Shown here in pieces: positions 3,008 to 10,953 of a DNA stretch of 64,000 nt. Position numbers and translations under genes: made by a program. The notes below the pieces were generated by a model that was not told where the DNA came from, searched no databases, and worked only from the letters and a program-made list of their open reading frames with translations. Positions within the stretch are counted from its first letter, which is position 1. The number at the start of each line of letters is the position of its first letter. The stretch is from Octopus vulgaris (lineage: Eukaryota): assembly GCA_951406725.2 (NCBI GenBank), contig OX597814.1, positions 221,464,001 through 221,528,000 on the forward strand. Reading direction: 5' to 3'.

Positions 3008-5250
3008 ACTGCCACATATCTATCTAGGTACCATATATCTATCTATGTTTTTATCTAAAACAAAAGGTCTCTAAAATAGGTATGCCATGAAATATTGTAC
3101 TGACGCTTTTATCGAAGAGAAAGCTACTAGAAAAGTTTTATATCTCTGACTACTGAAAATCTGAAGAGGTATTCATTAATCCATAAATGAGAAGCGAAAA
3201 GAAAGTATGATTACTATATCAAATTCTGTGGTTTCTATCAGTCAAGGAATGATTTTGAGACTATAGGTTTTATCTAGGAGAAGGAAATGAAGCTTCAGGC
3301 TTACTTGAAGCACTAAATACTTGGCTATAGGTACTTGACACAATATATTAGGCATGTTTCGAGACTTTTGCTTATGTTTAGTTATGGTTATCTTTGTGGC
3401 GCACACAAGCACCTTGTTAAAGAAGTCACGATGTTCAAAAATACATGTGGTAGGGCGTGATCCGCATAGACATCTGGTGTTGATGATCTCTGAAGGCTAC
3501 AAAGCAATTGTCGGTGCAGGAAAATAAGCGACATCAAGTTGAGATACTTGTAGGTTTTCTGCTCTGATGAGACGAAAATGTAGACGTGGTGGGGGATAGT
3601 GACGGATAGCAGCAGAACCATTAACAACAACAGCAGAATCAAGAAACCTCTGTTTACAAAACGTTATCAGTCCGAGCCTTCAGAATAGTTGAAATTCTCA
3701 TCTTTTTATCTAGCCCAGCGACCAGTGAACGGGACCCAGAGGACCTCACTCCCAGTAGTAACATCTAAACATCTTGTAGTGAATGGCGGTTGAAGTGATT
3801 AGGAAATTGTGGTTCACCAAAAACGTGAACTCGCTGAATAACGGGTGTTCGCATCATAGATAAGTTACAAACGGGTCTTCTAACTTACCAGGAGAAAGAA
3901 TCTTAAAAAAGCCCTAAATCGGAGAAAAAGGTGCGGAATTTTCCCACAGCAATGAGGTATTTTGAGTTTACATATGAGTGCATTAACCAAATTGTGTTAC
4001 ATATTTTGTTTTTATGTGATCTGATGTTTACTAAGTGTTTTAGAACATATCGAATTTTAATATGGAAATTGTATGACCTCATTATTTCTACCCTCATTTT
4101 TATACGATCATGAATTGACCAGCTTCAAATATTTTTTACCTATGTACAAATAATATATATATGTGTATAATGGAGCTTGGGTTTCGTATATGTTCTAAAA
4201 AGAAACATTTATGGAAACACTGTATATATCCAAATATGGATACATCAATTATGATCTGTTCCAGATCAAATTGAAACAAGTTTGGAGATTTTATGAACGA
4301 AAACGAGAGGAAGAGATGCATAGAGCGGGTGTTCGCGTGATTGTCCACCGACATGGGGCAGAACACTAGCTTAGTTACTATAGGACAACGACTAGAGACA
4401 GTGACACTTAGATTGTCATTAAAAGCTGCACATCAGTAAGAACACCTGGAGGTCACAGAACTGACTCGCAGCATGAGGGAGATTTGTATGAATATCTATA
4501 TTCTAACGATACTCGAAGACGACAAAATTATTTCCGTATATCTTTAAGGAGTGGAGGAAGCACCTGTCAGATGGGAGATGAAAGGCAGAAGTTCCAGTGT
4601 TCTAACAGACAGACCTGATGGGATTTCTGCCTCAGGGAGAGAGAGAAAAGAGAGAACATATAGGATAGATAGTAGGCTGCATTATATTTAACAGCGGCAA
4701 CAACCCAAGTATACAGAGGTGAGGGCTGCAGAGCAGAAGTTAATAAAACTGCTTCATCCTCAGTACCATCAGCACAAAATGATCGAGAAGTAAAGAAGCC
4801 TCATTGTCACACACAGGACTGGTTAAAGGTTATGAAGATAAGTATAAATTAATCGTATTACACCTGTTGGGAAAGGGATGAGACAGGTGAAAATGGAGAA
4901 AACGTCGGTAACAATAAGAAAACAAAATTGGCAAAAAAACAATAAATACTGATGAAAAGAAAAATAGTTTGATGCTGTTGTCTAGGAAACGGGGCCGACC
5001 CGTCAGTTTACCTGCATCCTACAAAATGTAATACTGGATTTAAAACAAAACGAATGAAACAGAGGAGTAGGACAGCAAGACACTGACCTTAAATGATAGA
5101 TATTTTATTCCAATCAGATCAGGAGTATCTCAATCGAATTCACGTGGGGGGATATGCTCTTACATTTCTTTCTATGTAATTTGTTTTATGTGTCGAATAT
5201 ACTTGGTAACACTTATTTCCACTACACAACTTCAAGGACATAAACGCCGG

Positions 5251-8352: not shown

Positions 8353-8564
8353 CTCTTTTTACTCTTTTACTTGTTTCAGTCATTTGACTACGGCCATGCT
8401 GGAGCACCGCCTTTAGTCGAGCACCTCGACCCCGGCACTTATTCTTTGTAAGACAGTACTTATTCTATCGGTCTGTTTTGCCGAACCGCTAGGTGACATA
8501 AACACACCAACATCAGTTGTCAAGCAATGCTAGGGGGACAAACACAGACACACAAACACACACT

Positions 8565-8598
<34 letters not shown>

Positions 8599-8761
8599 CG
8601 ACAGGCTTCTTTCAGTTTCCGTCTACCAAATCCACTCACAAGGCTTTGGTCGGCCCGCGGCTATAGTAGAAGACACTTGCCCAAGGTGCCACGCAGTGGG
8701 ACTGAACCCAGAAGCATGTGGTTGGTAAACAAGCTACTTACCACACAGCCACTCCTGCGCC
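8353..8761 (-). mobile_element. tRNA-derived SINE, family A (CORE-like, internal microsatellite, TAAAAGAG tail)
   Basis: Head GGCGCAGGAGTGGCTGTGTGGTAAG..GGGTTCAGTCCC (A/B boxes), CORE-like ACCTTGGGCAAGT, tail AACAAGTAAAAGAGTAAAA; five copies in the window. Confidence 0.9.
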
Positions 8762-8782
8762 TATATATAAATATATATATAT

Positions 8783-9041
8783 CGCGGAAATGTACTTGCA
8801 TAGCAAGTGACCTGCTCTGAGATCTCGTGCTGAAGCAAAAACAATTGCAGCGTGGAAGGTGTTTATAAACCATTTAAAACCACACAGAAACCGTTATTTT
8901 GCCAGCACGGAATTTTGTCAGTGATCAATCAATTCACGGTTTCAAAGCGACGAAAATATTTCGGCAAAATAAATTTAAATATTGAAGTGAATCTAACGGT
9001 TTTTGTGTGTTTTTAAAGGCTTATGAACAGCATCCACTCAG

Positions 9042-9044
<3 letters not shown>
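8783..9044. mobile_element. Fold-back non-autonomous element with G3:C8-variant hammerhead candidate
   Basis: 8852-8896 is inverted relative to 8994-9037; same family at 10770-10953; flanked by TA-rich tracts. Confidence 0.7.
8912..8970 (+). ncRNA. Candidate minimal type I hammerhead ribozyme, G3:C8 variant (degenerate copy)
   Basis: ATTTTGTCA-GTGATCA-..GCGAC-GAA-AATATT-T-CGGCAAAAT: stem I, core GUGAUCA, GAAA, palindromic stem III AATATT; stem II is damaged in this copy. Confidence 0.45.
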
Positions 9045-9097
<53 letters not shown>

Positions 9098-9322
9098 GAA
9101 ATATTAAAATAACTAAGTCTCTCTAAAAGAGAACAGCGGCAGCGTTCCCGGAAAATAATAGTTATCGCCATACTAATATGGCATTCTTATAAAAATAAGA
9201 AAAAAGCTGTCCGCTTATTAGCTCCATGAGGCCATCGCCTTAAGTTAGCTATTTGATACACAAACTGTATCCATATAACCTTCGAACAAGGGAGGTCAGT
9301 CGCTCCACATACTTGACCGGCA

Positions 9323-9364
9323 GCTACAGACGCGTTTCGGAGTATTGCCCCTTTTCAATGCAGC
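9323..9364 (-). ncRNA. Minimal type I hammerhead ribozyme, U3:A8 variant (copy 1)
   Basis: Exact reverse complement of 9557-9598. Confidence 0.8.
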
Positions 9365-9556
9365 GTAGCCAGCCAGTAGGTGTCGCTTCCGACAATCTCT
9401 GTTCGATGGTTTTATTTACCTAGTTTCGGTGGAATACATCCACTTGTTTTCAATAATAGAAATATTAAAATAACTAAGTGGATGTATTCCACCGAAACTA
9501 GGTAAATAAAACCATCGAACAGAGATTGTCGGAAGCGACACCTACTGGCTGGCTAC

Positions 9557-9598
9557 GCTGCATTGAAAAGGGGCAATACTCCGAAACGCGTCTGTAGC
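9557..9598 (+). ncRNA. Minimal type I hammerhead ribozyme, U3:A8 variant (copy 2); predicted cleavage after C9592
   Basis: GCTGCA-TTGAAAA-GGGG caata CTCC-GAA-ACGCGT-C-TGTAGC: stem I GCTGCA/TGTAGC, stem II GGGG/CTCC, palindromic stem III ACGCGT, GUC triplet; stem I extends via TGGCTGGC/GCCGGTCA. Confidence 0.82.
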
Positions 9599-9917
9599 TG
9601 CCGGTCAAGTAGTGTGGAGCGACTGACCTCCTTGTTCGAAGGTTATATGGATACAGTTTGTGTATCAAATAGCTAACTTAAGGCGATGGCCTCATGGAGC
9701 TAATAAGCGGACAGCTTTTTTCTTATTTTTATAAGAATGCCATATTAGTATGGCGATAACTATTATTTTCCGGGAACGCTGCCGCTGTTCTCTGTTAGAG
9801 AGACTTAGTTATTTTAATATTTCTATTATTGAAAACAAGTGGATGTATTCCACCGAAACTAGGTAAATAAAACCATCGAACAGAGATTGTCGGAAGCGAC
9901 ACCTACTGGCTGGCTAC

Positions 9918-9959
9918 GCTGCATTGAAAAGGGGCAATACTCCGAAACGCGTCTGTAGC
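9918..9959 (+). ncRNA. Minimal type I hammerhead ribozyme, U3:A8 variant (copy 3); predicted cleavage after C9953
   Basis: Identical to 9557-9598, exactly 361 bp downstream. Confidence 0.82.
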
Positions 9960-10196
9960 TGCCGGTCAAGTAGTGTGGAGCGACTGACCTCCCTTGTTCG
10001 AAGGTTATATGGATACAGTTTGTGTATCAAATAGCTAACTTAAGGCGATGGCCTCATGGAGCTAATAAGCGGACAGCTTTTTTCTTATTTTTATAAGAAT
10101 GCCATATTAGTATGGCGATAACTATTATTTTATATATATATATATATATATTATGTATGTATGTATATATGTATATGGCTGTGTGGTAAATAGCTA

Positions 10197-10606
10197 GGTG
10201 CAGAAGTGGCTGTTTGGTAAGTAGCTTGCGCACAAACCACATGCTTCGGGTTCAATCCCACTGCGTGGCACCTTGGGCAAGGGTCTTTTACTATAGCCTC
10301 CAGCCAACCACAGCCTTGTGAGTGGATTTGGTAGACCGAAACTGAAAAAAACCCGTCGTATATATGTATATATATATATATATATGTGTGTGTGTATACA
10401 TGTGTGTATATGTTTCTGTCTCTGTGTTTGTTCTCTCAACATTGCTTGACAACCGATGTTAATGTGTTAGCGGTTCGGCCGAAGAGACCGATAGAATAAG
10501 TACTAGGCTTACAAAAAATAAGTTTTGGCGTTGATTTGCTCGACTAAAGGCGGTGCTTCGGCATGGCCGCAGTGAAATGACTGAAACAAGTAAAAGAGTA
10601 AAAGAG
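10197..10606 (+). mobile_element. SINE family A
   Basis: Full-length homologue of 8353-8761 in the opposite orientation. Confidence 0.9.
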
Positions 10607-10701: not shown

Positions 10702-10769
<68 letters not shown>

Positions 10770-10770
<1 letters not shown>

Positions 10771-10953
10771 GGAGATGTACTTGCATAGCAAGTGACTTGA
10801 TCTGAGATCGTGTGCTGGAACGAAAATAATTGCATCGTGGAAGGTGTTTATAAGCCATTTCAGAAACACACAAAACCGGTAGATTCACTTCAACATTAAA
10901 TTTAATTTGTCAAAATATTTTCGTCGCTTTGAGACCGTGACGTGTTCACTGAT
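10770..10953 (-). mobile_element. Second copy of the 8783-9044 family, truncated within the hammerhead candidate (10906-10953)
   Basis: Minus strand reads TCA-GTGAACA-C-GTCAC ggtctcaaa GCGAC-GAA-AATATT-T-TGACAAA; remainder aligns to 8783-8896 and 8940-9037. Confidence 0.7.

Follow-up and report, generated by a model that had tools for sequence, protein, structure and literature searches.

A young hammerhead repeat of Octopus vulgaris, probably copied by a Penelope-like enzyme, and a LINE that apparently switched to it from U1 snRNA genes

Non-LTR retrozymes have been described in several metazoans (coral, mussel, axolotl) as non-coding tandem units of 170-400 nt and low GC content with one type I hammerhead each, for which a dependence on Penelope-like elements (PLEs) was proposed (PMC7229834, bioRxiv 2026.07.22.740005). 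Retrozyme circles were demonstrated in other animals (PMC7229834), and animal retrozymes have been argued to be non-autonomous PLEs in work that, for Xenopus, reported similarity to autonomous PLEs in 24 of 57 families and cleavage of one of nine tested dimers (bioRxiv 2026.07.22.740005). Hammerheads of the Schistosoma PLE Cercyon were described with a U3:A8 pair, a palindromic stem III and predicted dimeric cleavage (PMC4209133). PLEs with a pLTR, Poseidon of Anolis among them, are characterised by a tail at one end, an inverted and 5'-truncated arm, partial tandems, and AT-rich or microsatellite targets (bioRxiv 2021.04.23.441226, PMC11167929). Sequence-specific LINEs of the Tx1 clade, for their part, use snRNA genes or other repeats as targets, Tx1L being found in Tx1D, Keno in U2 and Tx1-Mar in Mariner-N4; the targets named comprise U2, U5, 5S, satellites, microsatellites and transposons (PMC4494074). 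According to the same source, tandem copies of these LINEs sandwich one duplication, and a lineage that targets snRNA genes is related to one that targets transposons. A retrozyme could be among the satellites of that list, and U1 is described as a target of Dada DNA transposons (PMC8869645).

The octopus repeat reported here has the unit length, low GC content, tandem non-coding organisation and single type I hammerhead of the metazoan retrozymes, from which it differs by a U3:A8 core, a strict pairing of short and long arm ends in (TA)n and the presence of a site-specific LINE inside it. It shares with the Schistosoma PLEs the U3:A8 pair, the palindromic stem III and a predicted dimeric cleavage, although in Schistosoma the pair occurs in heterogeneous, mostly single minimal motifs (PMC4209133) and in octopus in canonical type I motifs of homogeneous tandem arrays. 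The arrangement of arms, tail, partial tandems and targets is that of PLEs with a pLTR, whereas the octopus repeat has no ORF and a tail of about 60 bp instead of 30-40 (bioRxiv 2021.04.23.441226, PMC11167929). The LINE, in turn, resembles the Tx1 clade in its type of target and in its tandem copies around one duplication, but its targets are U1 snRNA genes and a hammerhead retrozyme, neither of them among the Tx1 targets listed above, and its apparent change of target lies between copies 95-97% identical in DNA.

The array and its (TA)n flanks occupy positions 9044-10176 of the window, that is, the whole stretch of 64,000 nucleotides that was analysed (contig OX597814.1, positions 221,464,001 to 221,528,000, forward strand), and its features are given in Table 1. 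A preliminary description made from the letters of the window had proposed an inverted copy and tandem copies of a non-coding unit between (TA)n tracts, and BLAST of the unit bore this out, the direct arm of 652 bp (9480-10131) being made of the same unit as the inverted one. The unit length of 361 bp given in that description holds for the window copy, which lacks one C, but not for the family, whose units are mostly of 362 bp. No ATG-initiated ORF of at least 40 aa lies wholly within the array, and two such ORFs extend out of it into the TA tracts. Older dispersed repeats flank the array (8537-8709 / 10248-10420 and 8762-8875 / 10747-10860), one pair inverted (86%) and the other direct (87%), and are probably unrelated to it.

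Table 1. Features of the octopus array, in window positions; u denotes a position within the unit, u1 being 9480
Feature	Positions	Strand	Remarks
Left (TA)n tract	9044..9094	.	Insertion target; (TA)n-rich flanks also in most other loci examined
Inverted arm	9092..9479	-	388 bp; u324-361 then u1-350; long 'tail' end (u350) outermost, at 9092
BLAST copies, minus arm	9092-9441 (u1-350, 99.1%); 9442-9479 (u324-361, 100%)	-	
Hammerhead type I	9323..9364	-	U3:A8 core 9358-9352; predicted cut after 9329, minus strand
Empty 17-bp LINE target site u52-68, minus arm	9374..9390	-	Matched to LINE junctions elsewhere
Arm-arm junction	9476..9479	.	4-bp microhomology, read from sequence
Complete unit u1-361	9480..9840	+	BLAST reference unit
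Empty 17-bp LINE target site u52-68	9531..9547	+	Occupied by the putative L1/Tx1-type LINE in other copies
Hammerhead type I	9557..9598	+	Core 9563-9569; predicted cut after 9592
361-nt monomer predicted from the two cuts	9593..9953	+	Ends pair in predicted fold
Terminal partial unit u1-290	9841..10131	+	BLAST 99.7%; end belongs to short end class (u284-291)
Empty 17-bp LINE target site, terminal unit	9892..9908	+	
Hammerhead type I	9918..9959	+	Core 9924-9930; predicted cut after 9953
Right (TA)n tract	10131..10176	.	

The three hammerheads and the predicted plus-strand cuts were found in the same places as in the preliminary description, and a hammerhead descriptor of our own gave three matches in the window and none in 40 simulated sequences of 64 kb with matching dinucleotide composition. 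The fold comprises a helix I of 6 bp, a helix II of 4 bp and a helix III of 2 bp with a palindromic loop, which by the definitions of PMC4209133 corresponds to a canonical metazoan type I motif, so the earlier label of minimal hammerhead was wrong. It had also been anticipated that the variant core would escape a strict search; indeed, Rfam gave no hammerhead family up to an E value of 5 and nothing at gathering score, so that a standard search misses this U3:A8 hammerhead. The miRNA matches returned by Rfam in the array were discarded, as they reflect the inverted repeat only. On the other hand, the U3:A8 pair, which headed the preliminary description, is not new, since it was published for Schistosoma PLEs with about 1,300 matches (PMC4209133) and occurs more than once in the octopus genome itself, where it forms the core of all five retrozyme variants and is present in the pLTRs of autonomous PLEs. 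Among the loci examined there was no C3:G8 relative, and hence the swap at positions 3:8 is not seen to covary within the genome.

Copies across the genome with covarying stems, as expected from the preliminary description, were found in the form of five natural variants, 70-93% identical. Pairing in stem I is kept in 28 of 30 cells (25 of 25 for the inner five pairs) and in stem II in all 20, with both sides changed between variants in each of the two stems. The palindrome of stem III is present in the five variants, which use all four self-complementary inner dinucleotides, and in the core N7 is the sole variable position, the U3:A8 pair, the GAAA and the NUH site being always present. Such covariation is good sequence evidence for selection on hammerhead pairing with a second copy, and the four different stem III palindromes point to dimeric cleavage. 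The core is intact in 134 of the 138 segments that cover the ribozyme, within a family too young to show whether the core is better kept than the rest. Moreover, the predicted fold of the 361-nt monomer (-125.1 kcal/mol, z -7.25, none of 100 shuffles equally stable) brings its ends together. Taken with this modelled fold, the compensatory changes would show selection at the RNA level in the lineage, which is a separate matter from present activity.

A search of the 2.8-Gb genome (227 contigs) for three disjoint 22-23-nt patterns over u52-73 yielded 684, 374 and 21 exact matches, that is, at least 1,079 units, and reversed-pattern controls yielded none. In a DNA search in which the best 40 of 1,171 candidates were scored, 199 matches were obtained; the best matches listed show 93-100% identity, mostly 98-99%, and a tandem arrangement with a 362-bp period. 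The units form short arrays that are dispersed over many contigs and whose ends in (TA)n are fixed. Variants private to one array are often common to units of both arms, which indicates that most insertions derived from one donor. In two loci (L014 and L088) the private variants are common only to the outermost unit of each arm, a pattern that favours a multimer template over a monomer circle, although conversion between arms could give the same. Diverged sister repeats were met in the flanks of other loci, two of them 82% and 71% identical to the unit. Three such repeats (L075:540-935; L200:837-1201 with L109:1-292; L034:7132-7273) carry covarying U3:A8 hammerheads within (TA)n, and a fourth (L127:5076-5215) is a weak profile match. 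A 392-nt self-looping contig occurs in three public runs tentatively taken as RNA and could equally come from a circle or from tandem RNA or DNA, and no start or end places are visible in the assembled contigs of four public runs. The units of the array are non-coding and in tandem, fall within 170-400 nt and carry a hammerhead in successive copies, in agreement with the definition of a non-LTR retrozyme, and the element is likely a non-autonomous PLE. Taken by itself, it is an ordinary new retrozyme family; no description of it was found in the literature covered, consisting of main texts mostly from outside subscription journals, and it may be catalogued already.

The ends of the repeat bear on how it moves. 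Among 41 arrays, chosen as best matches (40 of 1,171) or for their adjacency to the LINE, 33 are two-armed with tails outward, and for 31 of the 33 the ends fall at u280-291 (near u287) on one arm and at u347-350 on the other, the exceptions being L004 (258/290) and L023 (350/128). A tail at one end together with an inverted 5'-truncated arm is the arrangement described for PLEs (bioRxiv 2021.04.23.441226). In vitro, the tail of the Anolis PLE lies between two internal start sites of reverse transcription, both target strands are cut and extended, and uncleaved RNA is the dominant substrate (PMC11167929); by analogy, the pairing of short and long ends matches these two start sites. Thus the earlier proposal of a retrozyme dependent on Penelope is supported by the genome-wide arrays, the tail signature and the covariation. 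An abundant autonomous PLE of the same genome encodes RT and GIY-YIG domains (781-aa frame in 16 of the 148 matches listed), and its pLTR contains a U3:A8 hammerhead. Its junctions with (TA)n fall at two positions separated by 40 bp, both kinds of end being present together in each of the two two-armed copies seen; the long end has the 7-mer CTATTAT in common with both retrozyme ends. A second PLE family has a U3:A8 core as well, as judged by eye. When 46 PLE loci (of 6,136 GIY-YIG candidates) were searched for a partner by blastn and with a profile of four copies, they yielded only the sister repeats and no pLTR or autonomous PLE similar to the unit in DNA, so we infer the partner PLE. Among other observations on the PLEs, locus L121:1-5172 (contig C16) holds many intact 781-aa frames that, in the copies read, each follow a second open frame of 250-479 codons, which is unusual in that PLEs are single-ORF elements. 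U3:A8 hammerhead-like motifs lie downstream of another PLE family at L129:4606 and L131:5243, with a palindrome in L131.

The most surprising feature, beyond the view of any reading confined to the window, is a site-specific LINE of 5.35 kb that was met between distant units while the autonomous partner was being sought. Its ORF1 contains a zinc knuckle and its ORF2, intact in some copies, an APE endonuclease, an RT and a zf-RVT domain; from these domains and its best named homologues (a Ciona pol-like protein and a Chlorella RT, 25-27%), it would be of the L1/Tx1 type. An exact pattern of its 3' end has 28 matches in the genome, 21 of them adjoining u52 and seven elsewhere (one in a U1 gene, five at ATAC and one at ATAT), and a 1-bp deletion in the 3' UTR separates both groups without exception. 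The u52 site lies 26 bp upstream of the hammerhead, and the LINE enters it in sense, typically with a 17-bp duplication (u52-68). Consistent with this, 16 of 19 close matches to the LINE 5' end follow u52-68, one is joined at u358 and two follow nt 1-17 of U1, so that 16 of the 17 near-full-length 5' junctions at the retrozyme follow the 17-bp site. Truncated copies also exist, of which L075 retains the duplication and C2a and L077 do not. A midpoint-rooted tree of 24 natural copies, from which a 69-bp copy was omitted, groups the 20 retrozyme copies in one clade (100/99) separate from the U1 and ATAC copies, the bootstrap not being settled. Altogether, the 21 copies at u52 likely arose by repeated site-specific insertion; no LINE targeting a retrozyme is described in the literature covered, with the same scope as above. 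Regarding related sequences, a public run under a different organism label contains stretches of the LINE, 200-460 bp long, that differ at 0-2 positions, and 70-85% of the sampled words are present in 20 public runs (11 studies, seven organism labels), as would be the case with closely related species or loose labelling. Another LINE family, about 70% identical (L160-L165), has its 5' junction at about 1500, and several of its copies follow one conserved sequence that resembles a small-RNA promoter and start, has no Rfam match and is possibly another target.

Older relatives of the LINE, 86-97% identical, sit either within a U1 snRNA gene or at sites of the ATAC type. Only one copy, L067, lies directly within a U1 gene: it abuts nt 1 of an intact gene (Rfam 125 bits) in a cluster of three on contig C18. 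About 40 kb away, locus L142 shows a LINE end, U1 nt 1-17 and a LINE in succession. The 5' junctions of L090 and L142 carry U1 nt 1-17, and, as L090 has them at a non-U1 site, the LINE RNA must have included a leader derived from the target. A U2 snRNA gene (L063:2301-2494) was noticed about 400 bp past the 3' end of L090, itself a U1-type copy. From these copies, the LINE likely switched recently from U1 snRNA genes to the retrozyme, a direction suggested by the greater divergence of the U1-type copies. Within the first 250 aa of ORF2, two U1-type and 11 retrozyme-type copies differ consistently only by the fixed changes N23D, M26R and L84M. A change in the endonuclease hairpin, a candidate determinant of the target, was set aside as cause of the switch, since residues about 187-197 are alike in the U1-type L142 and in retrozyme copies. 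Aligned in register, the two targets agree at 8 of 14 positions upstream of the nick and at 14 of 32 overall (P 0.013 and 0.022, over a span chosen afterwards), a similarity that is too weak to call, the first four bases being different. The ATAC common to the old off-target sites and to the start of U1 fits either a preference of the nuclease or a pairing of read-through flanks.

The account we consider probable is that a young non-coding repeat was copied into (TA)n by a PLE enzyme and that the LINE inserted repeatedly at a fixed site in it after a recent switch from U1. Its main competitor, which appears unlikely, is a single chance insertion followed by hitchhiking, in which the Penelope pathway copies LINE and unit together as one composite, with no targeting at all. 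Such a course would agree with the single clade of retrozyme LINEs, with the little sequence that the U1 and retrozyme targets have in common and with the fact that the age of the LINE follows that of the unit haplotype in most loci, youngest-clade copies being found in an older haplotype at one locus of eight against 37% of sites (P = 0.15). This agreement in age is also compatible with a random choice among the sites then present. Three loci are more direct: in L077 a truncated LINE is joined directly to the inverted arm, in L032 the unit that follows the LINE has a haplotype unlike that of the other units in the array and breaks off at u286, and in L081 a LINE sits on both arms; the first two, and perhaps the third, look like co-transfer of LINE and unit. 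However, L075 carries a LINE of the youngest clade, truncated at 3302 and flanked by the duplicated target, inside an older unit haplotype. On contig C2, where five LINE copies stand in tandem inside one retrozyme array (L071-L074, 73.044-73.069 Mb), there are three LINE-17bp-LINE junctions, a pattern interpreted elsewhere as sequential insertion (PMC4494074), and in five two-armed LINE arrays (L075, L076, L083, L086 and L088) the mirror unit of the opposite arm is empty. Moreover, a truncated LINE joined to the inverted arm should be the dominant composite form, given an insert of 5.35 kb and LINE-free arms that reach at most about 3.6 kb, yet it occurs in only one of 16 mapped LINE-bearing arrays. 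Targeting is therefore judged to be the main route and co-transfer a minor one.

As for the repeat itself, a spread at the DNA level as a minisatellite, with the hammerhead as a relic that no longer cuts or is unnecessary, would be in keeping with the unimpaired in vitro insertion of the Anolis PLE by hammerhead mutants (PMC11167929) and with the eight of nine Xenopus dimers left uncleaved (bioRxiv 2026.07.22.740005). The dispersal of short arrays with fixed ends over many contigs, the compensatory changes between variants and the stability of the monomer fold make it quite improbable. There is even less to recommend that the LINE, and not a PLE, mobilises the repeat as its SINE. The LINE does have intact ORF2 copies and a physical link with the repeat, its older copies sit at ATAC or ATAT, close to (TA)n, and none of the 46 PLE loci offers a homologous pLTR; but LINE and repeat have no common 3' tail, about 21 LINE copies face more than 1,000 units, the autonomous PLE has the same pattern of two ends and two arms, and the sister families, in which no LINE was seen, also end in (TA)n at equivalent positions. 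Lastly, low-complexity flanks and homopolymer differences between units could raise the suspicion that the tandem and inverted structure arose as an artefact of assembly, which we regard as hardly credible with the same architecture and locus-specific junctions in 33 arrays and the head-to-tail junction in contigs of three of four public runs from different studies.

Under the preferred account of a PLE-copied repeat and a targeting LINE, arrays would be transcribed and hammerheads of neighbouring units would pair through their palindrome, so that monomers of 361/362 nt may be cut out and be ligatable into circles. As suggested by the observed ends, a dimer of the PLE RT/GIY-YIG protein would nick both strands of a (TA)n tract and start reverse transcription at u287 and u350, about 60 nt apart, one on each strand. 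The template would be the same or a sister multimeric or circular RNA, and the two cDNAs would join through microhomology to give two arms with their tails out. The LINE would then nick before u52 and after u68, leaving the 17-bp duplication that is seen in its copies. Since it lands between two hammerheads, both ends of a read-through RNA would be trimmed. Pairing between RNA and target was proposed for SART1 and R1Bm (PMC7265360). It is conceivable, if rather doubtful, that the target of the LINE is set mainly by its own RNA and not by its endonuclease, and that one chance landing in a retrozyme was alone enough to redirect a U1-specific LINE by way of hammerhead-cut transcripts. Such transcripts would bear a 3' trailer of 62 nt matching the target and a leader of 316 nt. 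Conversion tracts from the donor 3' trailer were found in L032 only, and they do not discriminate, because a trailer used for priming would not be copied. If this RNA-guided reading were true, a natural retargeting would have been caught at 95-97% identity, in a hyperparasite that uses the ribozyme of its host for RNA processing.

What is new in this genome is a young LINE clade fixed at one retrozyme site, an apparent recent switch from U1 and a clean rule of twin ends. The pairing of ends in a non-coding substrate of 361 nt offers a small and direct test of PLE integration and of tandem regeneration, which in vitro work leaves open (PMC11167929). Changes of LINE target are usually inferred over deep splits, whereas here a single genome contains both states. 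As copies of the new type have intact ORFs and the endonucleases differ by three fixed changes, guidance by protein and by RNA become separable by swaps, and, if RNA flanks suffice for targeting, this would have a bearing on programmable insertion tools.
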